Notes: generated by a model from the sequence alone, not told the origin. Shown: positions 32,810 through 46,648, numbered from the stretch's first letter. The stretch: 64,000 nt of DNA from Acidobacteriota bacterium (GCA_040752275.1 JBFMFH010000056.1:13015-77014), one strand, 5' to 3'. Numbers and translations: made by a program.

Positions 32810-33121
32810 TCAGCGGGGCAACCAGCGGACCTGGCGAAAGGCGCGGATGCGCTCACCGACGACGATGACGCCCTCGGCTCTCAACAGGGCCCGCTTGAGA
32901 GACTGATGGCCCCCATAGCCCCCGAGACGGCCGCCAGAAGCGACCACCCGGTGGTACGGCACGTCGGTCTGCGGGGAAGTTCGCATGATGGTGCCGACGG
33001 CCCGCCAGGCCCGCGGGCGTCCTGCCAGCGCGGCAATGTCCCCGTAGGTGGCCACCCGGCCAGGCGGGATCCGCCGGGTCACGGCGAGCACCCTGGCGGT
33101 GAACTCGGTGGGTCGGATCAT
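32810..33121 (-). CDS. Alkyltransferase-like (ATL) protein: single MGMT DNA-binding domain with Tyr in place of the acceptor Cys
   Basis: IPPGRVATYGDIAALAGRPRAWRAVGTIM...VPYHRVV...GGYGG. The canonical PCHRV motif reads PYHRV here. Confidence 0.75.
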   Translation of the reverse strand: MIRPTEFTARVLAVTRRIPPGRVATYGDIAALAGRPRAWRAVGTIMRTSPQTDVPYHRVVASGGRLGGYGGHQSLKRALLRAEGVIVVGERIRAFRQVRWLPR

Positions 33122-33196
33122 CGCTCGCGCACGGCCGGATGTCGCGTCTCGCACGCAGGCGGCAGCGATCCAAGGGCCCGCCGGGCAGCAGGCCCG

Positions 33197-33992: not shown

Positions 33993-35639
33993 CTAGAAGA
34001 CCCCGCACGCCGTCCAGGCCTGTGTGATGGCGGTCTCGACTCCGCTGCCGGCGCCGTAAAGGTCCCGTGCCGCCTGGATCGTGGCGGCGCGGGCGATCGA
34101 GAACGTGGCATTGGCCGGCAGCATCTGAGTGAACGCGCGGAAGAAGACCTTCTCGATCCGGTCGCGGTTGGCCCCGCCCACTCCTTGGACCGCAAGCCCG
34201 GAGGTGCGGTTCACACCGCCCTCGATGGCCAGGTAGAAGGCATGGTTGGCGATGCCCGAGTTGCTGTGGACGCCGCCATTGTCTGCCGGACCAAGGTAGC
34301 GCTTCGAGTAGTGATCCGGATCGCCGAAGGCTCCGGGGTTGGCCATGGACCGGAACCCGCCCATTGGCGAGGTCAGATCTTCGCCCAGCACATAGTCCGC
34401 CCTCATATAGCCGCTTCCGACGTCCTGGAAGTAGAACTCCGCGGAGGTCCCGATGATGTCGGAGAACGCCTCGTTGAGCGCGCCCGGCTCGTTGAGGTAG
34501 ATCAGGTCCGAGGAGTAGTCCGTCACCCCGTGCGTCAACTCGTGGGCGACGACATCGAGTGCCCCGGCGAAGTAGTTCCACCGATACCCACCTGAGGTCA
34601 CCGTGGGGGGCAGCCCTTCGCCGTACACCATGATGCCGCGGCCGGCGTAGAACGCGTTCAGGTAATAGAGGCCGATCACGCTGCCCGGATAGTCGCGCCA
34701 GGCATCGCGGCTGACGGGGTGGACGATGCTCGTCATGCTCCGGTTGTGCCCGTCGAGGCCCAGGCGGTTGAAGCGCTTGTACAGGTAGTCGTAGGTCCAG
34801 CCGGCGTACGCGTGCGCGTCGACCGCCGCCGGATCCTCCCACGTGTTGTCGGCATCGGAGGCGAAGTCGTTGTCGCCGAGCGCAATGAACCCGTTCAGAT
34901 AGGAGCGGGTCCTGGTGAGGTCGCCCTTCATGTCGTAGGTGTAGATGGCCGCCGGACGCAACTGGTCCCACGCGACGAACCGTCCTCCTCGCTCGCTCGT
35001 ACTGAGCTTCTTGGTGTCGCTGTGGACGCCGGTTCCCGAGCCGACAGTCGTCTGGAGATCGCTGTACTGAAACACGACCGCGCCGGAGTGAGCGTCGATG
35101 AAGAAGACGACGATGTCGCTCAGCGTGACGGTACGGGCCCGGTACGCGAGGCCGAAGGTGCCCAGATCCAGCGCCACCACCATTAGCTCGGGCTCATCGT
35201 CGGGACTCGGCATCACGCCTGAGACGTCGGCGACTCTCCGGGCGGCCTCAGAGGGCGTGAGGGTGGGTTCGGCATCGATGTCAATGCCGGTGTAGAGCGT
35301 GCCGAAGATGGAAACGGTCTGCTCCCGTTCCAGCTGCCTGACGAGTTGACCTCCGAACACGGGGACGTCGCGATGGTACTGGTCCAGACGTTCGTGCCGC
35401 CGGCCCGCCACCATCTCGTCATCGTCGGCCCGCCGGAGGCGCAGCTCCCCGTCACGCAGCATCCGCGTGATTCGCGCATCCCACTGCCGCAGTTCGCTGA
35501 TGCGAGGAGCGCGCTCATCCGTACCGATCGCCACGCGCAGGGCGTCCTGGCGAACCTGGGCGATGCCGGATGGCTGAGCGGCGAGTGCCAGCAGACCGAA
35601 GCCGAGCAGCCATCGGCCCAGCCTTCCGTCGGACGTCAT
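33993..35639 (-). CDS. M4 (thermolysin-like) secreted zinc metalloprotease with propeptide
   Basis: VVAHELTHGVTDYSSDLIYLNEPGALNEAFSDI (HExxH + GALNE.FSD), a signal peptide, and the C-terminal GGVHSNSGIANHAFY motif. Confidence 0.9.
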   Translation of the reverse strand: MTSDGRLGRWLLGFGLLALAAQPSGIAQVRQDALRVAIGTDERAPRISELRQWDARITRMLRDGELRLRRADDDEMVAGRRHERLDQYHRDVPVFGGQLVRQLEREQTVSIFGTLYTGIDIDAEPTLTPSEAARRVADVSGVMPSPDDEPELMVVALDLGTFGLAYRARTVTLSDIVVFFIDAHSGAVVFQYSDLQTTVGSGTGVHSDTKKLSTSERGGRFVAWDQLRPAAIYTYDMKGDLTRTRSYLNGFIALGDNDFASDADNTWEDPAAVDAHAYAGWTYDYLYKRFNRLGLDGHNRSMTSIVHPVSRDAWRDYPGSVIGLYYLNAFYAGRGIMVYGEGLPPTVTSGGYRWNYFAGALDVVAHELTHGVTDYSSDLIYLNEPGALNEAFSDIIGTSAEFYFQDVGSGYMRADYVLGEDLTSPMGGFRSMANPGAFGDPDHYSKRYLGPADNGGVHSNSGIANHAFYLAIEGGVNRTSGLAVQGVGGANRDRIEKVFFRAFTQMLPANATFSIARAATIQAARDLYGAGSGVETAITQAWTACGVF

Positions 35640-35741
35640 GCTTCCCTCCCATCGAGCAGCCGCACGCGTGATCCCAGCCTAGGTGACCCCAGATGCGCTG
35701 TCAACAAGATCAGCGACCATCAACGCGAGCGAGCTCCGGGA

Positions 35742-37133
35742 TCAGGCGGCGGCGACCTCCAGGTAGGGCAGTGGGTCGATACCCACTACGGCCGGATCGA
35801 GCGGCGTGACGATCTGGGGCGGCGGTCCGGCGGGGCCGTCGTCCTCCCAGAGTGCTACGTCGAAGGGTTGCTCGAGGCGGCGTCCGTCCGGTTCGGTCAA
35901 CACCCGAACGGCCGGCCGCGCCGGATCGGGCGCGTGCGTGCGCACAACGACGGCGATGCTGCCGGTATCCAGCCGGACGAGGCTGCCAGGCGGGTAGATG
36001 CCCATGAGCTGCGCGAAGCGGCGCACGAGGCGCTGATCGAAGCGCTGATTGTCGGCCTGTTGCAGGACGGTGAGAATGCGGTCGGTCGGGAATGCCTCCT
36101 GGTACGCGCGCTGGGAGCGCATCGCGTCGTAGACATCGGCGATGCTGCACAGCTGCGTGGCCACGTTGAGGGCCGTCCGGCTCACGCCGGTCGGATAGCC
36201 CGTGCCGTCGACGCGCAGGTGGTGTTCGAAGGCGACAACGGCGGCGAGCGGCGGCATCTCGAGCTGCCGTCTCAGGATCTCGGCGCCGTCCACCGGGTGG
36301 CGCTTCATGATGGTGAACTCGTCGTCAGTCAGCTTGCTCGTCTTCTTGAGGACCTCGGCCGGCGTCTTGATCTTGCCGATGTCGTGCATCAGGCCCGCGA
36401 GGCCGAACTGCCTGAGGGCCGCTCCCTCGATGCCGAGGCTCTGCGCCTGCGCGATTGTCAGGACGCTGACGTTCACCATGTGCGTGAAGGTGTAGTTGTC
36501 GTACCGGCACAGGGCGGTCAGGGCCACCATCGCCCGGCGGTTCTGGCCAACGGCCTGTGCCAGCCCCTCCACCACCGTCTTGGCGAGCGCGGGATCGACC
36601 GAACCCTCGGCGGCGGATTGGTACCATAGCTGCTCCGCCTGTCCGACGGCGTTGTCGTAGAGCTGTCGAGCCTCGTGGACGTTGCTGCCGACCTCCGACT
36701 GGACGCGCCTCTGCAGCTGCAGGCGCCCGACCCTGGTGTGCGGCCCCGTATTGATGGGCGCGGCGGCGTCTCCCGGATTGCGGCGGGCGGCCGCAGACAC
36801 CAGACTGGCCAGGAAGGCCAGCAGTTCCTCGCGCGTCACACCCTTTTCGATGGTGATGCGCTCGACGTCGGCCGCGCGCAGCCGCTCAATCGCCTCTGCC
36901 GCGCCGACGGACTTGGGCATCGGCACGTCGTTCACGATCACCTGGCCCTCGAGGATCCCCACGATGAGGGCTTCCCCTTCCGCGTGAATCCGATCCATGC
37001 TCTCGAGCAATTGCTCGAGGGCCCGATCCAGGATGGGATGGCCCATCCCGTAGAGGACGATGCCCTTGACGGCACCGGCCAATCGCTTCAGGACCTCTTC
37101 GGCCGTGTGGATGCGGCGCAGGTCGGTACTCAT
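35742..37133 (-). CDS. HD-GYP domain protein (putative c-di-GMP phosphodiesterase), copy 1
   Basis: LMHDIGKIKTP, HHLRVDGTGYP, DVYDAMRSQRAY. N-terminal LYxxxHP module. The start at 37133 forms an ATGA overlap with the upstream HEAT gene. The 865-aa track ORF was rejected. Confidence 0.88.
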   Translation of the reverse strand: MSTDLRRIHTAEEVLKRLAGAVKGIVLYGMGHPILDRALEQLLESMDRIHAEGEALIVGILEGQVIVNDVPMPKSVGAAEAIERLRAADVERITIEKGVTREELLAFLASLVSAAARRNPGDAAAPINTGPHTRVGRLQLQRRVQSEVGSNVHEARQLYDNAVGQAEQLWYQSAAEGSVDPALAKTVVEGLAQAVGQNRRAMVALTALCRYDNYTFTHMVNVSVLTIAQAQSLGIEGAALRQFGLAGLMHDIGKIKTPAEVLKKTSKLTDDEFTIMKRHPVDGAEILRRQLEMPPLAAVVAFEHHLRVDGTGYPTGVSRTALNVATQLCSIADVYDAMRSQRAYQEAFPTDRILTVLQQADNQRFDQRLVRRFAQLMGIYPPGSLVRLDTGSIAVVVRTHAPDPARPAVRVLTEPDGRRLEQPFDVALWEDDGPAGPPPQIVTPLDPAVVGIDPLPYLEVAAA

Positions 37134-39382
37134 GCCTGGACTCCCGATCGACTGCCCGCCGGCACGCGTTCTCTGAGGGCCGATCGCGCGGCCGACCGCG
37201 TGCCCCGGGCGCCGTTGGCGGCGGCGGCCTCCAGCTGTTCGATGGCCCGTACCGACCCGATGCGGGCGAGCGCACCGGCCGCCTGCCGGCGGAGCGAGGC
37301 CGTCATGAAGGGCGCGAACAGCCACCCACGGCGCAAGACGTGCCCGAGAGCGTCGATGGCCTCGCGGCTGTCCGACTCGCCGAGGCGCTGCAGGGCCTTC
37401 TCGTGCACGTCGCGCATCCCGCCGCGGGGAGTCGTCTGCTCCGCCACGAAGGCCAGCACCGGGACGGCGTCGGCGAGCGGAAGCGACCACAGGACGTTCA
37501 CCACGATCCCCCGGGTTTCGTTGGTACCGCGTACGAGGGCGTTGGCGAGGATCTGGAACGCGGGCTCGATGCCCAGCATCGCGATCGCGCGGGTGGCCTC
37601 CCGCTGAACGTGCGGGGCTCTGTCGTTCAGCAGCGACTCGAGCTCCGGAAGCGCGTCGTGTCCGCCGAACTCTCGCAGCAGCACGACGGCCGTCCGGCGG
37701 ACGGCGGCGTTGCTCGACTGCATCAGGCGTTCCACCGCCTGGCGGCCTGCCGGGCCGTAGGACACGAGCAGGGCGACCAGGTGGTTCCGCGAGCGCGTGC
37801 GCTCTTCGCGCGCCAGCGTCTGGGCCAGCGGTCCGACGGCGCTCGTGCCGATGGCGCGGCACATGCGCTCGGCCGCAGACGCCAGGCGCTCGTCCGAGGT
37901 GTCGAGGTGCGATGCGAGGTGCCGCATCGCGGCCGGATCCAGCACCTGCTCCAGGGCGGCCGACGCGGCCGCCTGGAGGGCATGGCCGCTCTCCGGATCG
38001 GCGCGCGCGGCAATGGCCTCGGTGAGACCGGCTGCGGTCTGAAGGTCGCCGAGCACGATGCAGACCTGGATGCGCGACACCACCAAGTCGGCAAGTTCCC
38101 GCCAGGGGCCGGGCTCTGTCCGCAGGCCGAGCAGATCCACCAGGAGCTGGGCGTCCAGCAGGCGCACGGCATCGTCGCTGACGGTCGAGGCCCACCGCGC
38201 CAGACGCTCGGGCGGATCGGTCCGAGCCTGATCGAGCTCGACGGCGCGGCGCGAGGCGGCCTGCAACTCGCTCGTGTAGGGATCGCCGACATACGAATCG
38301 TGGTCGTACGTGCTCAGGAGCTGTTCCGCCTGGCGCCACATCTGATCGGTGGCCGAATCCTCGAAGGCCGAGGACTTCTGCAGAATCTCGCGGGCCAACG
38401 CCAGGATCGCCTCCCGGCGGTCGATGTCCGGCGCGATGCCCCAGACGGCGCCGGCGAGGTCGGGCGACGTCCCACGGTTGTTGCGAACCTCAGACACGAT
38501 CGCCTGCGCCACGGTCGCATCCTTGATGCGAACCGCGAGGTTCTCGACGAAGCCAGCCAGTTCAGGGCGATCGACCAGTCTGCGTGCCCCCATCAGGCCG
38601 GCCAGCGTGCCCATCGGGAGCCGAGCCGCGGCATCGGCCATGCCGCAGAGCACCGCCTCGAGGCGCTGCGGCTGGACCTGGGCGACGAACGTCGCGACGG
38701 CGTGGAGCAGGCCGCCAACGATCAGCGCCCCGCGTCCCGTGCCGCCCGACGTTCGCTCCTCGACGGCCGCGACGAGTTCCCCCGCCCGCTCCGGGTCGTT
38801 CAGGACGTCCAGCAGCAGATCCACGACCCATTCGTCGAGGGCGAGGGACTCGCCGGCGAGGCACTGCGCGATGATGGCCTCCCATGTGGCGGGTTCCCCC
38901 TTGATCGACTCCCGAAGCAGCTCGCGGTAGTCGAGCTGTTTCACCGCGATGGCCGGCTCGGCTTCCGATGCCCACAGCTTCACGATGCCGCCTCGACCAC
39001 GTGCCTGATCGGGCTGGATGGAGACGAGCGCGAGGAATCGCTGCCAGACGTCGGCGGGCGTGTCAGGCTGAATCGTCACCTGTGCCACCAGGTGTCGATG
39101 CAGAAGGTCGGCGAAGTCCGTGACTGCCTGGTCCCTTCGGGCCAGCGGATGCCCGCCGACCAGCAGCGAATCGGGCAGCACCGAGAGGTGCAGGGGCCCG
39201 GCCGAGGTGACCTGCGTCGTGGCCGTCGCGACCGCCGCGAGCGCGGCGGCGATGTTCGGGTGTTCCGCCGGATACAGGGCCAGGACGCGCGCCGCCGACC
39301 GGCAGGCCTTCACCAGGTTGACCAGGGGCGCCGCCTCAACGGCGGAGAGGGTGTTCGCGACCGCGTCGGCGCCGTGAGTCAT
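37130..39382 (-). CDS. HEAT/armadillo-repeat protein (750 aa), copy 1
   Basis: C-terminal HEAT units (AVRRTAVVLLREFGGHDALPELESLLNDRAPHVQREATRAIAMLG). N-terminal LVKACRSAARVLALYPAEHP module. ATGA overlaps at both ends. Confidence 0.75.
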   Translation of the reverse strand: MTHGADAVANTLSAVEAAPLVNLVKACRSAARVLALYPAEHPNIAAALAAVATATTQVTSAGPLHLSVLPDSLLVGGHPLARRDQAVTDFADLLHRHLVAQVTIQPDTPADVWQRFLALVSIQPDQARGRGGIVKLWASEAEPAIAVKQLDYRELLRESIKGEPATWEAIIAQCLAGESLALDEWVVDLLLDVLNDPERAGELVAAVEERTSGGTGRGALIVGGLLHAVATFVAQVQPQRLEAVLCGMADAAARLPMGTLAGLMGARRLVDRPELAGFVENLAVRIKDATVAQAIVSEVRNNRGTSPDLAGAVWGIAPDIDRREAILALAREILQKSSAFEDSATDQMWRQAEQLLSTYDHDSYVGDPYTSELQAASRRAVELDQARTDPPERLARWASTVSDDAVRLLDAQLLVDLLGLRTEPGPWRELADLVVSRIQVCIVLGDLQTAAGLTEAIAARADPESGHALQAAASAALEQVLDPAAMRHLASHLDTSDERLASAAERMCRAIGTSAVGPLAQTLAREERTRSRNHLVALLVSYGPAGRQAVERLMQSSNAAVRRTAVVLLREFGGHDALPELESLLNDRAPHVQREATRAIAMLGIEPAFQILANALVRGTNETRGIVVNVLWSLPLADAVPVLAFVAEQTTPRGGMRDVHEKALQRLGESDSREAIDALGHVLRRGWLFAPFMTASLRRQAAGALARIGSVRAIEQLEAAAANGARGTRSAARSALRERVPAGSRSGVQA

Positions 39383-40737
39383 GCAGCCAACACCGTGATT
39401 GGGTCGACGCCCACGTCGTCCTGGTTCACGGCCTCCATGACGGAGTATTGGAATCGTCCGCGGGCGTCCCGGTCGGAGGTGTCCACGACGAGGGGCTCGG
39501 GCAGCCGATACCCCCGCCGGTCGAGGACGATCTTCACCTTCGGGCGGAACGGATCACGTGCGTGCTCGCCGATGACGACGCCCACTTCGCCCAGCTCCAG
39601 GCGGACGAGCGTGCCGACGGGAAAGGCGCCCATCAAGGTGACGAAGCGCTGCAGCAGCGTCGACTCGAAGGTCGTGCCCGACTGCTCGTCCAGCATGACC
39701 CGCACGCGTGCGGCCGGGAGTTCGTCGCGATAGGCCCGCTTCGTGCGCAGGGCGTCGAACACGTCAGCGATGCTGACGAGCATCGTGCAGAGGTTCAAGG
39801 TCCGGTGCCCGATTCTCTCTGGATACCCGCTGAGATCCTGCTTCAGGTGGTGCTCGAACGCCACGACAGCCGCGAGCGACGGCATCTCCGGGGTCCGTCG
39901 CAGGATCTGGGCGCCATCGACGACATGGCGCTTCATGATGTCCATTTCCTCGCCGGTCAGGCGCCCGGGCTTGCCGAGAATCTCGGCGGGCGTCTTGACC
40001 TTGCCGATGTCGTGCATCAGGCCGGCGAGGCCGAACTCGCGCAAGAGCGGCCCGGTGATCCCGAGCGTCCGGGCCTGAGCCATCGTGAGCAGCGACACGT
40101 TCACCATGTGGGTGAAGGTGTAGGTGTCGTGGCTCTTGAGCGAGGTGAGCGCCATCATGGACGTCCGGTCCTGCGAGACCGCCGTGGCGAGGGCGTCGAT
40201 GATGGTGCGAGCGGCCGCCGGGTCCGGCTCCTCGCCGGCCGTGGCGGCGCCCCAGACCGACTCCGCCGCGCTGACGGCCGTTCCGTAGACCCGCTGCGCC
40301 GTCGAGAGGCCCAGGTGCTCGATGGGCATGGCTTCTTCGGGGGCGATCGTCCCGACGCCGATTCCCTTGACGCCAACCGCGGCAAGCCGCTCGAACACCG
40401 GCTGGGCGCTGCGCTCTGCCATCACCGCGACGAAGGACCGGAGCCCAGACACGCCCATGTCCCGCGAGAACGAGACCTTGTCGACGCGGCGATCGCGGAA
40501 GTGCCGGACGATGCTCGAGAGGGCGGGGTTTCTCAACCGGGTCCGGCCCACGATCACGTCTGAGCCCAGGAAGCCGATCGTGACGGTCGGGGCCTCCGTG
40601 AAGTGTGCCTCGAACGAACCCGTCAGGATTTCGACGCTGCGCGAGACGATCGGATGCGTGGGAGCGTAAAGGCTCGAGGCCCGAATGGCAGCCCCGAGGC
40701 GCTTGACGAGTTCTTCGGCGCCGCGTGTCGAATCCAT
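39379..40737 (-). CDS. HD-GYP domain protein (putative c-di-GMP phosphodiesterase), copy 2
   Basis: LMHDIGKVKTP, HHLKQDLSGYP, DVFDALRTKRAY. N-terminal LVKRLGAAIRASSLYAPTHP. The start lies 1 nt after the upstream stop. Confidence 0.88.
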   Translation of the reverse strand: MDSTRGAEELVKRLGAAIRASSLYAPTHPIVSRSVEILTGSFEAHFTEAPTVTIGFLGSDVIVGRTRLRNPALSSIVRHFRDRRVDKVSFSRDMGVSGLRSFVAVMAERSAQPVFERLAAVGVKGIGVGTIAPEEAMPIEHLGLSTAQRVYGTAVSAAESVWGAATAGEEPDPAAARTIIDALATAVSQDRTSMMALTSLKSHDTYTFTHMVNVSLLTMAQARTLGITGPLLREFGLAGLMHDIGKVKTPAEILGKPGRLTGEEMDIMKRHVVDGAQILRRTPEMPSLAAVVAFEHHLKQDLSGYPERIGHRTLNLCTMLVSIADVFDALRTKRAYRDELPAARVRVMLDEQSGTTFESTLLQRFVTLMGAFPVGTLVRLELGEVGVVIGEHARDPFRPKVKIVLDRRGYRLPEPLVVDTSDRDARGRFQYSVMEAVNQDDVGVDPITVLAA

Positions 40738-40738
40738 C

Positions 40739-42991
40739 TCAGGCCTCTCCTCGCAGGGCCTCACGGGCCAGTCGCCTCAGGGCGCGATCGCCGCGTCGGG
40801 CCAGCATCGTGATGGCGTCGCGCGCCGCCGGCGTGTCGATGTGGTTCAGGACACCGAGCACGCCGTGCCGCAGTTCCCGCGTCTTCGCGCGGGCGAACCA
40901 GCGGCGCGCTCGGGCCACGCCGACAAGGCTCTCGATGGCGGACTCGTCCCCGATAATGCGCAGCGCCGCCAGCGTTCTGAGAGCCAAGTCGAAGTCGGCG
41001 CCGAGCACGTCCAGGTGAGGAAGCAGGCCCGCAACCACCGGGGACGCGCGACGGTCGCGGCTGGCGGCGAGCGCATCGATCGCCATGTCCCGGACGCCGG
41101 GGCCGCCCATCGTCAGAATCCGCGAGATGGCCTTGGGGGCGGCCGGGTCGTCGAGCTTGATGAGCGCCGCAATGGCCTCACGGGCCCGGCGCAGATCCTG
41201 ATCCCTCGCAATGGGGAGGAGCAGCACGACGGCGTCGCGTGCCCCCAACCGGCCCAGCAGTTGAATCGCGCCCCGCGCGACCTGCCAGTCTGGCTCGTGG
41301 GCCAGGCGGCCGAGCGCCGAGATCCCGTCCTCTCGGAAGGCGCTCAGGATCCCGCACAGGCGCTCCCGGACATCATCCTGCACCGACGCTGCGTAGGTCG
41401 AGACGAGGCCACGGATGACACCCGGGCCCACGGCCAGGCAGAGTCGGACCAGGTCGCCGAACTGGTCCGTGTCGAGATCGCCGGCCGCGGCGAGCATCTC
41501 GGCCAGCGCCGGCGAGGAGGCGATGGATTCGAGGGCGAGACGCGCGGCCAGCGCCCGCCCGCTCCTGGCGCCTCCGCCCGCCGCCTGCAGGGCCGTGGCC
41601 ACCCGAAGAGCCTCGCTGAGATCGCCGGACAGCAGCAGGTCGCCCACCAGCACCGCGAGGTCACCGGCGGTCTCCGTCAGGGCAGCCGGGTGATCCTCCA
41701 GACTGAAGAGATCGAGCAGGAGCGTCACCGAGAGGGTTCGAACCGAATCCGACGACACGGTCTGCATCCAGTCGTCGAGTTCGACTGGCACATCGAGCAT
41801 CAGCCGGCGCGACCGCGCTTCGGCTTGGTCGAGGCTGGCCGAGTAGCCGTCGGAGACGTAGGTGACGTCTGCCGGGCCGCTCATGAACCGCTGCAGCGAT
41901 GCCCACGCCGTCTCCAGGCCCGACGCGTTGTCGGCTGGCGTGCTCATCGATTGGGCGAGCCGCACGACGCGGTCGCGGCGATCCGACTCTGGGGTCAGGG
42001 TACTCAGGGCCGCAGCCATCCGCCCGCTGGCCCGACCTTCGGCCGCCAGCGATCGTGCCAGCATCGTGGCAATCTGCCCGTCATCGAAGTGGCGGCCCAG
42101 GGTCGCGGTCAGGTCGGATCCGAGGCCCGATTCGGCCGACTCCGCGATTGCCCGCATCATCAGCGCGGGGTCAAGGCGGCCGGCGGCCTTGGCCACGTTC
42201 TTGACCGCTACGCTCAGGTCGTCGGGCGCATTGGTTCGGACGGTGCTCACCAGATGTTCGAACGTGGCCAGGATCGTCGCTGCCTGTGCGGCCGCCAGCG
42301 CGGATCCGGACGGCGCGGTGTGAACCGACGCGGCCTGGCTGGCGAGCATCTGGATCGATTCCGCGGAGCGGGCGATGTCGACGAGGCGCTTCTGCGCCGG
42401 GGCATCGGCCGACGGGCGTCCGCCAGCAATCGACCGGACTAGAGCGGTCCAGACGTCGTCCTGGGAGGCGGACCTGCCGCCATCGCCACCCCCGCTACCG
42501 GCGCCGCCAGACGCCCGGCCGGCCGGGGTCGCCGCCAGGATCGAGTCGTAGTCGAGCTGGTCGACTTCGAGCCAACGGTGACCGAAGTGCTCCCAGACGC
42601 GGGCCGGTCCGCCGCGCTTCCGGAGTGTATTCCCGTCGAAGCCGAGTAGCTGCAGGAAGTCGCTGGCTTCGTTGAGAGCCGGCGCACTGCGGACGCGGAG
42701 CCGGAGGAGGTCGCGTTCGTGCAGGAGTGCGGCCGCCTCGCCCGTCCGCTCGTCCGGCGCGAGGACTTCGCCGTTCGCCATCAGGGCCGCCGGTGTGATC
42801 CCGAGTTCGAGACCACCGTGGCCGGCTAGCTGCGCAAAGGCGGTCCGAAGGCGCTCGGCCGCGGCCATGGCGGCCGGGTGGTCGGCCGTGTAGAGCTGCC
42901 GGGCGCGGGCGGCCGCGACGAGCATCCGGGCGAACGCCCGGACATCACGAATGGTCTCGGCGGGGACGAGGGTTGACGACACCACAGGCAT
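40739..42991 (-). CDS. HEAT/armadillo-repeat protein (750 aa from the ATG at 42991), copy 2
   Basis: A paralog of 37130-39382 with shared N-terminal ...LYTADHP..., VDQLDYDSIL versus VKQLDYRELL, and C-terminal HEAT-like units. The start was chosen because it gives a length identical to the paralog. Confidence 0.7.
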   Translation of the reverse strand: MPVVSSTLVPAETIRDVRAFARMLVAAARARQLYTADHPAAMAAAERLRTAFAQLAGHGGLELGITPAALMANGEVLAPDERTGEAAALLHERDLLRLRVRSAPALNEASDFLQLLGFDGNTLRKRGGPARVWEHFGHRWLEVDQLDYDSILAATPAGRASGGAGSGGGDGGRSASQDDVWTALVRSIAGGRPSADAPAQKRLVDIARSAESIQMLASQAASVHTAPSGSALAAAQAATILATFEHLVSTVRTNAPDDLSVAVKNVAKAAGRLDPALMMRAIAESAESGLGSDLTATLGRHFDDGQIATMLARSLAAEGRASGRMAAALSTLTPESDRRDRVVRLAQSMSTPADNASGLETAWASLQRFMSGPADVTYVSDGYSASLDQAEARSRRLMLDVPVELDDWMQTVSSDSVRTLSVTLLLDLFSLEDHPAALTETAGDLAVLVGDLLLSGDLSEALRVATALQAAGGGARSGRALAARLALESIASSPALAEMLAAAGDLDTDQFGDLVRLCLAVGPGVIRGLVSTYAASVQDDVRERLCGILSAFREDGISALGRLAHEPDWQVARGAIQLLGRLGARDAVVLLLPIARDQDLRRAREAIAALIKLDDPAAPKAISRILTMGGPGVRDMAIDALAASRDRRASPVVAGLLPHLDVLGADFDLALRTLAALRIIGDESAIESLVGVARARRWFARAKTRELRHGVLGVLNHIDTPAARDAITMLARRGDRALRRLAREALRGEA

Positions 42992-43070
42992 AGCTCGGGC
43001 GCCCTCGACGGGGGTGCCTCTAGAGGTATCGGCCCAAGGGCCAGGAACTTTCGCTATACTGCTGGCTTCC

Positions 43071-44420
43071 ATGCGTGCGGTCGACATCATTCGGGCCAAG
43101 CGTGATGGCGGCGCGCTGAACCGTCAGCAGATTGACAGCTTCGTCATTGGCGCCACCGATGGCTCATGGCCCGACTACCAGATCTCCGCCCTGCTGATGG
43201 CCATCGTCCTGCGGGGCATGACCGACGAAGAGACGGCCTGGCTGACCAGCGCAATGGCCCAGTCCGGGGCGCGCCTCGACCTGAGCCGTCACCCGGGCCG
43301 CAAGATCGACAAACACAGCACGGGCGGTGTCGGCGACAAGACCTCGCTCGTCGTCGCGCCGGTGGCGGCCGCCTGCGGCGTGGTCGTGCCGATGATGTCC
43401 GGGCGGGGTCTCGGCCACACCGGCGGAACGCTGGACAAGCTCGAGTCCATTCCAGGATTCCGGGTCGACCTCGCGGCGAGGGAGATCGCGGACGCGCTGT
43501 CGGATGTCGGCTGCGTGATCGTCGGTCAGACGCGCGACGTCGCGCCGGCCGACCGGCGGCTCTATCGCCTCCGCGACGTGACCGCCACGGTCGAGAGTGT
43601 TCCGCTCATTACGGCGTCCATCATGAGTAAGAAGCTCGCCGAAGGGATCGACGGGCTGGTGCTCGACGTCAAAGTCGGCCGGGGCGCCTTCATGGGCACG
43701 GCCGCGGAGGCCGGACATCTGGCCCGGTCGATGGTCCGGGCCGGGGATCTGGCCGGTGTCCGGACCGAGGCGTTGCTGACCCGCATGGATGCGCCACTCG
43801 GGCAGCACGTGGGCCACGCCCTCGAGGTTCGGGAGGCGATTCACGCGCTCCAGGGACGGGGACCCCAGGATCTGGCGCGTCTGTCGCTCTTGCTGGCCGG
43901 CCGGATGGTGATGCTCGCCGGCCTCGCGCCGACCCCTGAGGAAGGCGAGCAGCGGGCCGAGTCGGCCTTGCGGTCTGGCGCCGCGCTCGAGCGGTTCCGC
44001 CGCATGGTCGAGCGGCAGGGCGGGGACGGGTCTGTCGTCGACGATCCGGGCCGGATCGAGTCGGCGGGCGGCCATGAACTCGTCCGGGCCCCGCGGGCGG
44101 GCTACGTGACCGGCCTCGATGCGCTGCTGATTGGCCGGGCGGCCTCGGCACTCGGCGGCGGTCGCGACACAGCCGACGATCGTGTTGATCACGGCGTCGG
44201 CGTGCGGGTGCTGGTGCCACTGGGGATCCTCGTCAGGGCCGGCGATCCCGTTCTCGAGTTGCATCATCGCGACGGCCGGGGGCTCGCGGAAGCGGTGGCG
44301 CTGGCAGCGCAGGCCATCGAGCTGGGCGGCGCACCGCCGGTTCCACAGCCGTTGGTGCTCGAAGTGGTGACGGGCGGGACGGGCGATTCACGAGCGAGGG
44401 GGGAACGACATGACGCGTGA
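43071..44420 (+). CDS. deoA: Thymidine/pyrimidine-nucleoside phosphorylase
   Basis: MRAVDIIRAKRDGG, KHSTGGVGDKTSL, SGRGLGHTGGTLDKLE. Confidence 0.92.
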   Translation: MRAVDIIRAKRDGGALNRQQIDSFVIGATDGSWPDYQISALLMAIVLRGMTDEETAWLTSAMAQSGARLDLSRHPGRKIDKHSTGGVGDKTSLVVAPVAAACGVVVPMMSGRGLGHTGGTLDKLESIPGFRVDLAAREIADALSDVGCVIVGQTRDVAPADRRLYRLRDVTATVESVPLITASIMSKKLAEGIDGLVLDVKVGRGAFMGTAAEAGHLARSMVRAGDLAGVRTEALLTRMDAPLGQHVGHALEVREAIHALQGRGPQDLARLSLLLAGRMVMLAGLAPTPEEGEQRAESALRSGAALERFRRMVERQGGDGSVVDDPGRIESAGGHELVRAPRAGYVTGLDALLIGRAASALGGGRDTADDRVDHGVGVRVLVPLGILVRAGDPVLELHHRDGRGLAEAVALAAQAIELGGAPPVPQPLVLEVVTGGTGDSRARGERHDA

Positions 44421-45762
44421 GGTCGAGACCGGCCGGGTCGGTCGCAGCAGCCGGACGTGGCAGGTGGCGGCCGTGGCCGTGGCGGTGGTGCTGGTGGCGG
44501 CGGCCTACGGACTGCGGGGCACGATCGGCGCGCGCGGCCAGGCGGCGTGCGGTGTGGTGTTCTTCATCGCACTCGTCGCGTCGTTCTCGCCCGACCTGCG
44601 CCGGGTGAACTGGCGCACGGTCGTCACCGGGTTCGCCATCCAGGTAGTCCTGGCGCTGTTCATCCTGAAGTTCGAGGTGGGAGGCGTCCGCCCGGGCTAC
44701 CATCTGTTCACGATGATCGGGAACGGCGTGAAACGGTTCCTTGAGTTCACCAACGCCGGATCGCTCTTCGTCTTCGGCGGGCTGGCGGATCAGACGGCCA
44801 TGTCGAAGATCTTCGCCGGCGGATTCGTGTTTGCGTTCACCGCGCTGCCCACGATCATCTTCGTGTCGTCGTTCTTCACCGTGCTGTACTACTTCGGCAT
44901 CCTGCAGTTCATTGTCCGCGTGATGGCGAAGGCGATGATGTTCCTCATGCAGACCAGCGGGGCCGAGACCCTCTCGGCGGCCGCCAACGTGTTCATGGGG
45001 CAGACCGAGGCGCCGATCATCGTCAAGCCGTACGTCCCGAAGATGACGCAGTCTGAGCTGCTGGCCCTGATGGTCGGCGGCCTTGCCACGATCTCGGGCG
45101 GCGTCATGGCGGTCTACATCCAGTTGGGTGCCGACCCGGTGGCGATTCTGACGACGAGCGTCATGGCGGCGCCTGGCGGGCTGTATCTGTCGAAGATCCT
45201 GCTGCCCGAAACCGACGAACCGCTGACGCGGGGCGAGGTCAAGATGGTGGTCGAGCGGACGCACGTCAATGCGATCGACGCGGCCTCCTCAGGCGCCTCC
45301 GACGGCATGACGCTGGCCTTCAACGTGGCCGCGATGCTGATTGCGTTTCTCGCCTTCATCGCGCTGTTCGACTACCTGCTGGCCCTCATTCACCCGGAAC
45401 TGTCCCTGTCCCGGCTGTTTTCGTGGGTGTTCTCGCCCATGGCGGTGCTGATGGGCGTGAGGTCCGCGGATGTGCCGGCGATTGCCGATCTGCTCGGGAC
45501 GAAGCTCGTGGCCAACGAGTTCGTGGCATTCGTCAAGTTGACGACCGAGTATCGGCAGTCGCTCGATCCGAGGTCCTATAGCCTGGCCACGTTCGCGCTG
45601 ACAGGGTTTGCGAACTTCTCCTCGATTGGCATTCTGCTCGGCGGGATAGGGGGGATGGCCCCGGGGCGGAGGCACGATTTGGCGAAGCTCGGCTTTCGGG
45701 CGCTGTTGGCCGGGTTCACGGCAACCATGATCAACTCGTCGCTCGCGTCCATCCTGCTCTAG
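44410..45762 (+). CDS. nupC: NupC/CNT-family nucleoside transporter
   Basis: Polytopic, with GFAIQVVLALFILK and NEFVAF...GFANFSSIGI motifs. It overlaps the deoA stop by 11 nt. Confidence 0.88.
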   Translation: MTREVETGRVGRSSRTWQVAAVAVAVVLVAAAYGLRGTIGARGQAACGVVFFIALVASFSPDLRRVNWRTVVTGFAIQVVLALFILKFEVGGVRPGYHLFTMIGNGVKRFLEFTNAGSLFVFGGLADQTAMSKIFAGGFVFAFTALPTIIFVSSFFTVLYYFGILQFIVRVMAKAMMFLMQTSGAETLSAAANVFMGQTEAPIIVKPYVPKMTQSELLALMVGGLATISGGVMAVYIQLGADPVAILTTSVMAAPGGLYLSKILLPETDEPLTRGEVKMVVERTHVNAIDAASSGASDGMTLAFNVAAMLIAFLAFIALFDYLLALIHPELSLSRLFSWVFSPMAVLMGVRSADVPAIADLLGTKLVANEFVAFVKLTTEYRQSLDPRSYSLATFALTGFANFSSIGILLGGIGGMAPGRRHDLAKLGFRALLAGFTATMINSSLASILL

Positions 45763-45829
45763 GAGCGGATTCGGGGACGCCTCGCGCCGATCGCGCGAGC
45801 TCGGGGCTCTCGGCAAGGCGGACAGACGC

Positions 45830-46648
45830 ATGGGCATCTTCGATGACATCGAACGCGCGGCCGAATTCGTTGCGGCGCGGATCACGCTCCGGCCCGACGT
45901 GGCCCTCGTCCTCGGGTCGGGGCTTGGCGATTTCGCCGAGCGGGTCGCCGGCGCGACCGCGCTGTCCTATGGCGACATCCCGGGCTGGCCGCCTGCGACG
46001 GTCGTCGGCCACGCCGGCAAGCTCGTTGTCGGGACCGTTCGCGGGCGTCATGTAGCCGTCCTGGCCGGCCGGGCGCATTTCTACGAGGGGCACCCGATGT
46101 CGGCGGTGGTGTTCCCCACGAGAGTGATGGCCCGGGTGGGTGTCCGCACGCTGATCCTCACGAACGCCGCCGGCGGCATCAACACCTCGTTCTCCCGGGG
46201 TGCGCTGATGGTGATCGACGACCATCTGAACCTGATGGGTACCAACCCGCTCGTCGGGCCGAACGACGAGCGGTTCGGGCCGAGGTTCCCGGACATGAGC
46301 GAGGTCTATTCACGACGCCTGCGACGGATTGCTGACCAGGCCGCTGCCCGGGTGGGTTTGACCCTCGCGCACGGCGTCTACGCCGGACTGCACGGCCCGA
46401 GCTACGAAACCCCGGCCGAGATCAGACACCTGCGGGCGATCGGGGCCGATGCGGTCGGCATGTCGACGGTGCCCGAGGCCATTGCGGCCCGGCACATGGG
46501 ACTCGAGGTGCTCGGCCTGTCGTGCATCACGAACCTGGCGGCCGGCGTCCTGCATGCGCAGATCGACCACGACGAGGTGATGGACACGGCTCGCCGGGTC
46601 CGTAACGACTTCATCGCGCTGCTGGAGGAGATCATTGGGGGAGTCTAG
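45830..46648 (+). CDS. Purine nucleoside phosphorylase (trimeric PNP family)
   Basis: LGSGLG, GHAGKLVVG...GRAHFYEGH, TNAAGG, GPSYETPAE...GADAVGMSTVPE. Confidence 0.9.
   Translation: MGIFDDIERAAEFVAARITLRPDVALVLGSGLGDFAERVAGATALSYGDIPGWPPATVVGHAGKLVVGTVRGRHVAVLAGRAHFYEGHPMSAVVFPTRVMARVGVRTLILTNAAGGINTSFSRGALMVIDDHLNLMGTNPLVGPNDERFGPRFPDMSEVYSRRLRRIADQAAARVGLTLAHGVYAGLHGPSYETPAEIRHLRAIGADAVGMSTVPEAIAARHMGLEVLGLSCITNLAAGVLHAQIDHDEVMDTARRVRNDFIALLEEIIGGV

Follow-up and report, generated by a model that had tools for sequence, protein, structure and literature searches.

A conserved HEAT-repeat/HD-GYP gene cassette with a shared N-terminal module in Acidobacteriota

A four-gene HEAT/HD-GYP operon

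Of the two classes of cyclic di-GMP (c-di-GMP) phosphodiesterases, the HD-GYP proteins are understood less well, and the regulation of most of them is obscure. A contig of an Acidobacteriota bacterium (GCA_040752275.1, JBFMFH010000056.1:13015-77014), whose whole analysed stretch of 64,000 nucleotides with a G+C content of ~68% is hereafter called the window, carries four consecutive minus-strand open reading frames (ORFs) that encode in turn a HEAT protein (A), an HD-GYP protein (B), a second HEAT protein (C) and a second HD-GYP protein (D). The two kinds of protein open with one homologous module, and the pair of genes behaves as a conserved cassette inherited as a unit. The gene order, strand and lengths (750, 452, 750 and 463 aa) that a first-pass annotation had claimed were borne out by the ORF reading, and the three junctions that it had named, TGA-g-ATG, ATGA and ATGA, by direct reading of the sequence. 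A and C correspond to P0020 (100% match) and P0001 (100% identity), which are labelled ‘HEAT repeat domain-containing protein’ in an Acidobacteriota metagenome-assembled genome (MAG); gene A is recorded at NCBI as 747 aa, with the start placed 9 nt further downstream, at 42982.

The overlapping or abutting stop and start codons at the three junctions are the pattern of a translationally coupled operon and are kept in relatives, suggesting that the four genes are translated in a coupled manner. At the A/B junction, GGAGAGG lies 8 nt upstream of the ATG of B. The fixed stoichiometry that had been proposed from the overlapping codons is plausible.

HD-GYP catalytic domains of B and D

B and D share 41% identity. 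Against Pfam cut-offs of 27.2 bits for HD_5 (PF13487) and 22 bits for HD (PF01966), B scored 60.7 and 53.3 bits and D scored 77.2 and 56.5 bits, the matches being confined to residues ~205-375 of both proteins; the first ~200 residues matched nothing in Pfam or NCBIfam. Searches of D against PDB sequences likewise matched the catalytic domain only, led by PmGH (4mcw, E 4.9e-27) and V-cGAP3 (5z7c, E 1.8e-21). The catalytic residues of D are H218, H250-D251, H279, H304-H305, D333 and G312-Y-P314, of which the metal ligands align with the residues of PmGH, and the ligands H, HD, H, HH and D together with GYP are invariant in 43 family members, B included. MHDIGK occurs in both proteins, followed by HHLRVDGTGYP in D and HHLKQDLSGYP in B, so that relative to HHExxDGxGYP both have Leu for the Glu after HH, and B also has Leu for the first Gly. 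The earlier statement that both copies keep HD...HHxxxDGxGYP therefore holds for D, and for the ligands and GYP of both, but not for B, in which the Gly of ‘DG’ is Leu. The domain scores, the metal ligands and the GYP motif all place B and D in the HD-GYP family, with intact active sites.

All 43 family members have D-x-Y-T-x-T-H (D-N-Y-T-F-T-H in D) where PmGH has D-P-E-T-Q-N-H, a segment at window positions 36473-36502 (D residues ~211-220) and at the equivalent site in B. The invariant Tyr214 (D numbering) thus replaces the PmGH-type Glu four residues before the first His, which is reported to be the ligand of the third iron. Because of this replacement, a binuclear rather than a trinuclear metal site is predicted, and the alignment suggests the same for the B/D family as a whole. 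Among PADLOC defence models, B and D gave only marginal matches to Cas3 HD domains (E 1e-4 to 1e-2), and A and C gave none; a link to defence of the cyclic-oligonucleotide-based antiphage signalling system (CBASS) type, considered for a cyclic GMP-AMP (cGAMP)-type role, was rejected for want of PADLOC support.

HEAT solenoids of A and C

Along their entire length, A and C share 26% identity (E 9e-35). With Pfam cut-offs of 27.7 bits for HEAT_2 and 20.9 bits for HEAT_PBS, A matched HEAT_2 (32.5 bits, residues 533-610) and C matched both models (56.0 and 23.9 bits); the matches fall in just the C-terminal third of either protein, and the first ~500 residues retrieved nothing from Pfam or NCBIfam. 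The AlphaFold2 model of C (52-sequence alignment; predicted local distance difference test score, pLDDT, 84.9) is all-helical from residue 164 to 739. Its Foldseek search returned 190 PDB matches at E<=1e-3, with alphaRep, SF3B1, PP2A-A and CAND1 in the lead, a generic solenoid likeness that is uninformative on the N-terminal module. A and C belong to the HEAT/alpha-solenoid proteins on two grounds, the repeat-model scores and the predicted fold. Pfam and NCBIfam searches of the two proteins recovered HEAT_2 and HEAT_PBS alone, with no sign of an output domain or of any known effector feature.

A homologous module opens all four proteins

An LY-x3-HP motif had been noted at each of the four N-termini, and all four are present as described (Table 1). 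By pairwise BLASTP, the N-termini align in register but weakly (A/B, E 0.036; C/D, E 0.89). When 12 HEAT-type and 12 HD-GYP-type N-termini, taken from orthologues on related contigs, were aligned separately and the two profiles compared with hhalign, they matched over 136 columns with a probability of 98.7% and E 2.3e-16; the score of 97.8 contrasts with 8-16 (E 0.09-0.85) for 20 column shuffles and a reversal. Hidden Markov models (HMMs) built from one type also found the other among the 419 ORFs of the window: the HEAT-type-only model retrieved B (E 8e-11) and D (E 7e-10), and the HD-type-only model retrieved C (E 3e-10) and A (E 9e-6), with the next best ORF at just E 0.35. The profile comparison, the shuffle control and the cross-family matches together indicate that the similarity is homology and not composition, and the earlier observation is thereby confirmed.

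The module is an alpha/beta unit of ~140 residues at the start of both HEAT and HD-GYP proteins. AlphaFold2 modelled residues 1-150 of D with pLDDT 88.2 and a predicted TM-score (pTM) of 0.82 (31-sequence alignment), and residues 10-150 of C reached pLDDT >90 within the full-length model. The elements of the C module follow the order alpha-alpha-beta-beta-alpha-beta-alpha-(alpha-alpha)-beta, and the order common to the C and D models is a hairpin of two long helices, then beta-beta(-beta)-alpha-beta-alpha and a last strand. In these models the invariant Tyr and His-Pro of the Y-x3-H motif sit at the turn of the helical hairpin, and the beta-like stretch that had been remarked after LY-x3-HP is predicted as a beta-hairpin, the first of the sheet. 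Tyr, His and Arg/Lys are invariant at matching positions in the HEAT-type and HD-type modules. Between the paralogous HD-GYP proteins, the module is also the part that has diverged fastest (22% identity, compared with 58% for the catalytic domain), which we count in favour of a regulatory role.

The family searches proposed by the first-pass annotation left the module without a match. Seven module sequences matched no Pfam model even at E<=10, and the N-terminal regions of the four proteins matched none in NCBIfam; the module profile gave chance-level matches only among PDB sequences (dynein, NMDA receptor; E >= 0.037), and a Foldseek search of the module against the PDB found no significant relative (best E 0.98), its top, insignificant neighbours being GAF and sensor-kinase domains. 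On these searches, the module belongs to no described family among those tested.

DUF3391 (PF11871) is the commonest uncharacterised N-terminal domain of HD-GYP enzymes, and many unannotated HD-GYP N-termini may be divergent DUF3391 (PMC12943098). Like B and D, the DUF3391-HD-GYP proteins carry an uncharacterised domain, of about 130 aa, before HD-GYP, and in DUF3391 as in the module a small antiparallel sheet is accompanied by one or two helices; the long two-helix hairpin with Y-x3-H that starts the module here is absent from the description of DUF3391, which has not been reported on a HEAT partner either. The Pfam model of DUF3391 did not match the seven module sequences at E<=10, while control proteins scored 1e-18 to 5e-20, and hhalign of the module against a profile of three bona fide DUF3391 domains, drawn from plasmid-borne HD-GYP genes, gave a probability of 0.08% and E 0.62. 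The identity of the module with DUF3391 was thus rejected at the sequence level, by comparison with a DUF3391 profile of just three sequences; a very distant kinship, or a likeness of fold in the beta-rich half of the module, may still exist.

A profile mixing both module types was searched exhaustively with HMMER against 1.84 billion cluster representatives. The proteins matched numbered 7,035 at a threshold of E<=1e-3, 2,035 at one of E<=1e-10 and 81 at one of E<=1e-30, counts that are upper bounds because P0068, a 2,094-aa TPR/ankyrin protein, reached E 2e-44 as a false positive through 25 partial matches to the second helix of the module. By length and motif checks, nearly all of the best 150 matches are HEAT-type proteins of ~740-760 aa or fragments thereof. 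Two further matches of ~1,420 aa, P0168 (L044:77-4339) and P0207 (L045:3081-7337), have the architecture GGDEF - AAA_16/STAND NTPase - module - HEAT_2, with the module at residues ~830-950. This fusion of module and HEAT to a GGDEF diguanylate cyclase ties the cassette to c-di-GMP.

Conservation of the gene pair

Related loci (L) were compared in about 30 Vicinamibacterales/Acidobacteriota MAGs and two Desulfuromonadales MAGs. In every locus with both genes readable, a module-HEAT gene is followed directly by a module-HD-GYP gene. Most loci are syntenic with the window: nucleoside-salvage genes flank the cassette at one end, and in closer relatives an M4 peptidase gene flanks it at the other. 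A pair-1-type (A/B-type) cassette stands at the non-syntenic site L006 among efflux and oxidoreductase genes, and in the low-GC Desulfuromonadales MAGs L040 (L040:5938-9296) and L043 the two genes are again joined by 4-bp overlaps, their products being only 16-28% identical to those of the window. In L041, an unclassified MAG, a module+HEAT gene precedes a module-bearing ORF whose HD region is masked. The HD-type fragment P0063, located independently from the HD side, also has a HEAT gene before it, with an ATGA 4-bp overlap. The adjacency on which the first-pass reading depended is therefore kept outside this genome, including in another phylum and at a non-syntenic site.

The junctions are kept as well. 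An exact 4-bp overlap was found at 23 of 44 HEAT>HD junctions, and 36 of the 44 lie within -20..+2 nt, counts somewhat inflated because the start was taken as the candidate nearest the upstream stop; despite this bias, the frequency of exact overlaps is still far over the roughly 5% per codon expected. In related loci, 9 of 14 HD>HEAT junctions have the 4-bp overlap of B/C, and the +1 junction of the A/B type recurs in the pair-1 orthologues L002, L012, L017 and L036.

Duplication and co-inheritance

The low identity of A to C and of B to D shows the four-gene array to be an old and not a recent duplication. The HEAT and the HD-GYP proteins gave congruent neighbour-joining trees, in which the acidobacterial sequences divide into two clades of paralogues, termed pair 1 (A/B type) and pair 2 (C/D type). 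The clade assignments of HEAT and HD-GYP partners match in 40 of 41 pairs, the exception being a Desulfuromonadales protein too distant to place, and the mirror-tree distances correlate with r = 0.96, a value inflated by the shared species phylogeny. Genomes with a single cassette mostly have pair 2, L006 having pair 1; L038 shows a pair-1 cassette before its contig ends within the following HEAT gene.

The Geopsychrobacteraceae MAG L043 has a HEAT/HD-GYP/HEAT/HD-GYP array of its own (L043:5923-12498). Because its copies group with each other and with L040, outside the acidobacterial pair-1 and pair-2 clades, this doubling was independent. The HD-GYPs of L040 and L043 are 381 aa long and are without the ~85-aa C-terminal extension of B and D. 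Judged from these trees, the cassette was duplicated and inherited as one unit with no swapping of partners, and its duplication in Acidobacteriota is ancient. The two specificities that had been proposed from the duplication gain support from the ancient paralogous pairs kept in many genomes with congruent trees.

Comparison with known systems

Known HD-GYP enzymes receive their input through domains joined to them covalently, for example REC, GAF and DUF3391. Literature searches turned up no report of an HD-GYP enzyme with a HEAT partner, in agreement with the earlier claim that no HD-GYP partner of this kind has been characterised. PmGH of Persephonella marina (4MCW) is, like D, a catalytic HD-GYP protein, and D aligns to its residues 189-351 with the ligands and GYP kept; the N-termini of PmGH, PA4781 (4R8Z) and Bd1817 (3TM8) are unrelated to the module, and none of the three is known to have a dedicated partner subunit. 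V-cGAP3, the 3'3'-cGAMP phosphodiesterase of Vibrio cholerae (5Z7C), resembles D in the catalytic domain but is a tandem HD-GYP with another N-terminus. RpfG of Xanthomonas, also an HD-GYP protein, reportedly signals by binding GGDEF and PilZ proteins, a precedent for HD-GYP enzymes that work in specific complexes; its input domain is REC, and its partners are encoded elsewhere and are not an adjoining HEAT protein that shares a domain.

The PP2A holoenzyme combines a HEAT solenoid with a metal-dependent phospho(di)esterase, and PP2A-A ranks among the best Foldseek matches of C (E about 7e-6). The likeness is one of analogy only, with TM-scores of about 0.2 that reflect a generic solenoid and with an unrelated catalytic fold, and it is set beside a complex of the cassette proteins that is itself conjectural; unlike the HEAT and HD-GYP proteins, the PP2A subunits have no common N-terminal domain. 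The cyanobacterial HEAT_PBS proteins (NblB and the CpcE lyase subunits) have the same repeat type as the C-terminal third of A and C. They are about 210-260 aa long without the N-terminal module, and A and C score 15-23 bits with the NCBIfam models of NblB/CpcE against cut-offs of 300-330, so they are not members.

A proposed two-protein system and its alternatives

These results point to a conserved cassette, in which a ~750-aa HEAT solenoid gene comes first and a catalytically intact HD-GYP gene second, and whose products would constitute a cognate system; we hold this reading with a confidence balanced between acceptance and doubt. The first-pass interpretation is thus supported in part, by the homology, the conservation and the co-evolution, while the hetero-complex, the dimerisation or sensing role of the module and the gating of hydrolysis by the HEAT protein are conjectural. 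In the proposed mechanism, both products would be made together and would act as a cognate pair, most likely as a physical complex. In analogy to the PP2A A subunit and its metallophosphatase, the HEAT solenoid would serve as a regulatory or scaffolding subunit, controlling c-di-GMP hydrolysis or determining where it takes place, and the N-terminal modules would supply a surface for pairing or an input shared by both proteins. The substrate of B and D would be c-di-GMP, and the two paralogous pairs may be insulated channels with different inputs or targets. A wider proposal is offered tentatively and with more doubt than belief: the module would be a new fold for cognate hetero-pairing (or for a shared ligand) that defines two-subunit c-di-GMP phosphodiesterase holoenzymes of a regulatory HEAT-solenoid and a catalytic HD-GYP subunit, in insulated paralogous pairs, with module and solenoid reused on diguanylate cyclases in the GGDEF-STAND fusions.

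Several points weigh against the proposed pairing. Evidence for a physical HEAT:HD-GYP complex is indirect and consists of adjacency and co-phylogeny; the mirror-tree value carries the inflation mentioned above, and the overlap counts carry the bias from the choice of start codons. Nearly all loci were found via the HEAT gene, and the constancy of the pair is thus seen mainly from the HEAT side. A single-cassette acidobacterial subclade (L026, L028, L031 and L035) has gaps of 120-255 nt between HEAT and HD-GYP genes, so tight translational coupling is not universal in the family. P0168 and P0207 are encoded by solitary genes with no HD-GYP gene beside them, so module and HEAT can function in the absence of such a partner. 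The invariant Tyr, His and Arg/Lys could equally mark a ligand site or cap the helical hairpin, and for D the cGAMP-specific V-cGAP3 scores nearly as high as the c-di-GMP enzyme.

The main rival, which we consider unlikely, is that the two proteins are parallel sensors that form no complex: the module would be a small-molecule or redox sensor with which both proteins sense one cue independently, and co-transcription would provide co-expression only. The polar residues invariant at matching positions in both families, as for a shared ligand site, the GGDEF-STAND fusions with the module before HEAT and no HD-GYP neighbour, and the insignificant structural resemblance to GAF and sensor-kinase domains are all on its side. 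However, co-expression alone predicts neither strict one-to-one co-duplication with tree congruence nor 4-bp overlaps kept across phyla, and no ligand-binding family was detected by the Foldseek, Pfam and PDB sequence searches of the module. Genetic linkage and co-evolution fit a trigger-enzyme arrangement as well as they fit the proposed pairing; the HEAT protein would then be a downstream target that is held by the HD-GYP protein and released or activated according to c-di-GMP turnover, as in local c-di-GMP modules. HEAT solenoids are typically interaction platforms, which suits such a target, as does the reported signalling of RpfG through its protein partners, yet A and C lack any output domain or effector feature beyond HEAT_2 and HEAT_PBS, the direction of control is not readable from sequence, and we think this arrangement quite improbable.

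It is more improbable again that the enzymes act on another substrate, such as 3'3'-cGAMP, pGpG or other phosphodiesters, with the cassette functionally part of the divergent nucleoside-salvage cluster. The V-cGAP3 match, the invariant Tyr in place of the third-metal Glu of PmGH, and the thymidine phosphorylase, NupC, purine nucleoside phosphorylase and cytidine deaminase genes that adjoin the cassette in most Vicinamibacterales loci would accord with it; the cassette is nevertheless intact away from salvage genes in L006, L040 and L043, module and HEAT also occur in fusion with a GGDEF cyclase, and no defence/CBASS-type model matched. A compositional origin of the N-terminal resemblance (Ala/Arg/Leu-rich proteins of a high-GC genome) together with a lineage-specific accident of gene arrangement is already refuted and is given practically no credence: the weak pairwise BLASTP values and the G+C content of the window would have allowed it, but the hhalign comparison against its shuffles, the cross-family HMM matches and the arrangement kept in low-GC Desulfuromonadales oppose it.

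The cassette of HEAT and HD-GYP genes represents a real and previously undescribed accessory-protein form of HD-GYP signalling, with a known enzyme, an undescribed shared domain and a dedicated partner. A large unannotated domain family is common to the HD-GYP enzyme and to the adjoining dedicated HEAT protein, and the two proteins have co-evolved. If they do form a complex, the HEAT protein would be without precedent as a scaffold-type accessory subunit of HD-GYP enzymes, and the two insulated paralogous pairs in one operon would offer a natural system for signalling specificity. The cassette further hints at a function for hundreds of proteins of soil Acidobacteriota and Desulfuromonadales now labelled ‘HEAT repeat domain-containing’ or ‘hypothetical’, which the GGDEF-STAND fusions link to the c-di-GMP network.

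Feature coordinates

Table 1. Features of the HEAT/HD-GYP operon, in window coordinates.
Feature	Position	Strand	Description	Basis
Gene A	40739..42991	-	pair-1 HEAT/alpha-solenoid protein, 750 aa	ORF, HEAT_2, match P0020
Module of A	42542..42991	-	about residues 10-150; motif QLYTADHP	HD-type-only HMM, E 9e-6
A/B junction	40735..40741	-	TGA-g-ATG, 1-nt spacer	sequence reads ...cctGAgATGgat
Gene B	39379..40737	-	predicted pair-1 HD-GYP phosphodiesterase, 452 aa	ORF, HD_5, HD
Module of B	40288..40737	-	motif SLYAPTHP	HEAT-type-only HMM, E 7.8e-11
B HD-GYP catalytic domain	39625..40125	-	residues about 205-371; MHDIGK ... HHLKQDLSGYP
B/C junction	39379..39382	-	ATGA, 4-bp stop/start overlap	sequence reads ...gcATGActc
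Gene C	37130..39382	-	pair-2 HEAT/alpha-solenoid protein, 750 aa	ORF, HEAT_2, HEAT_PBS, AlphaFold2 model
Module of C	38933..39382	-	motif ALYPAEHP	profile comparison; pLDDT >90 over residues 10-150
C region matched by HEAT repeat models	37220..37735	-	residues about 550-721	Pfam
C/D junction	37130..37133	-	ATGA, 4-bp overlap	sequence reads ...gcATGAgta
Gene D	35742..37133	-	predicted pair-2 HD-GYP phosphodiesterase, 463 aa	ORF, HD_5, PDB sequence matches
Module of D	36684..37133	-	motif VLYGMGHP; Y28, H32, R37 invariant in family
D HD-GYP catalytic domain	35994..36500	-	residues about 212-380	Pfam, PDB sequence match, family alignment
Divergent intergenic region	42992..43073	.	short; between gene A and the thymidine-phosphorylase-like gene

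Operon boundaries and neighbouring genes

The operon promoter presumably lies in the divergent intergenic region; consensus scans for a sigma-70 promoter and for terminators gave no match, a result that is uninformative for an acidobacterial genome of 68% G+C. Long antisense ORFs lie opposite the four genes at 37340-39733, 40685-42442 and 35346-36629 (all +; 797, 585 and 427 aa). They are Arg/Gly/Pro-rich, as is usual in high-GC shadow frames, and show no sign of being genes.

Divergent from A, a nucleoside-salvage cluster at window positions 43074-46648 (+) encodes a thymidine phosphorylase-like protein, a NupC-type transporter and a purine nucleoside phosphorylase. It is the conserved divergent neighbour in most Vicinamibacterales loci, an association that is gone in L006, L040 and L043, and in L010 a PilZ-domain gene is inserted in it (L010:2857-3237). 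On the other side, an M4 (thermolysin-like) peptidase gene at 33993-35639 (-) follows D in the same orientation after ~100 nt, and one is found at the equivalent position in the closer relatives L001 and L002-L005. In L001-L005 the peptidase gene is followed by an outer-membrane-protein-like gene, mostly an MGMT-like gene, and then a trio of extracytoplasmic function (ECF) sigma, anti-sigma and DUF4097 genes. A small ORF of the window at 32810-33154 (-) encodes an MGMT-like C-terminal DNA-binding domain, and its counterparts in relatives match PF01035. It reads P-Y-H-R-V where methyltransferases have P-C-H-R-V and, on this reading, could belong to the alkyltransferase-like (ATL) proteins, which lack the acceptor cysteine.

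A DUF3391/HD-GYP gene occurs on the Aeromonas caviae plasmid pGSH8M-1-2 (L047:762-1968), and an identical gene is present on about 40 other plasmids. It is annotated as two coding sequences, a DUF3391 fragment and an HD-GYP protein, and looks like a frameshifted or split gene. This gene is widely disseminated, its carriers being resistance plasmids, of the IncP/IncU type among others, from Aeromonas, Klebsiella and Pseudomonas.

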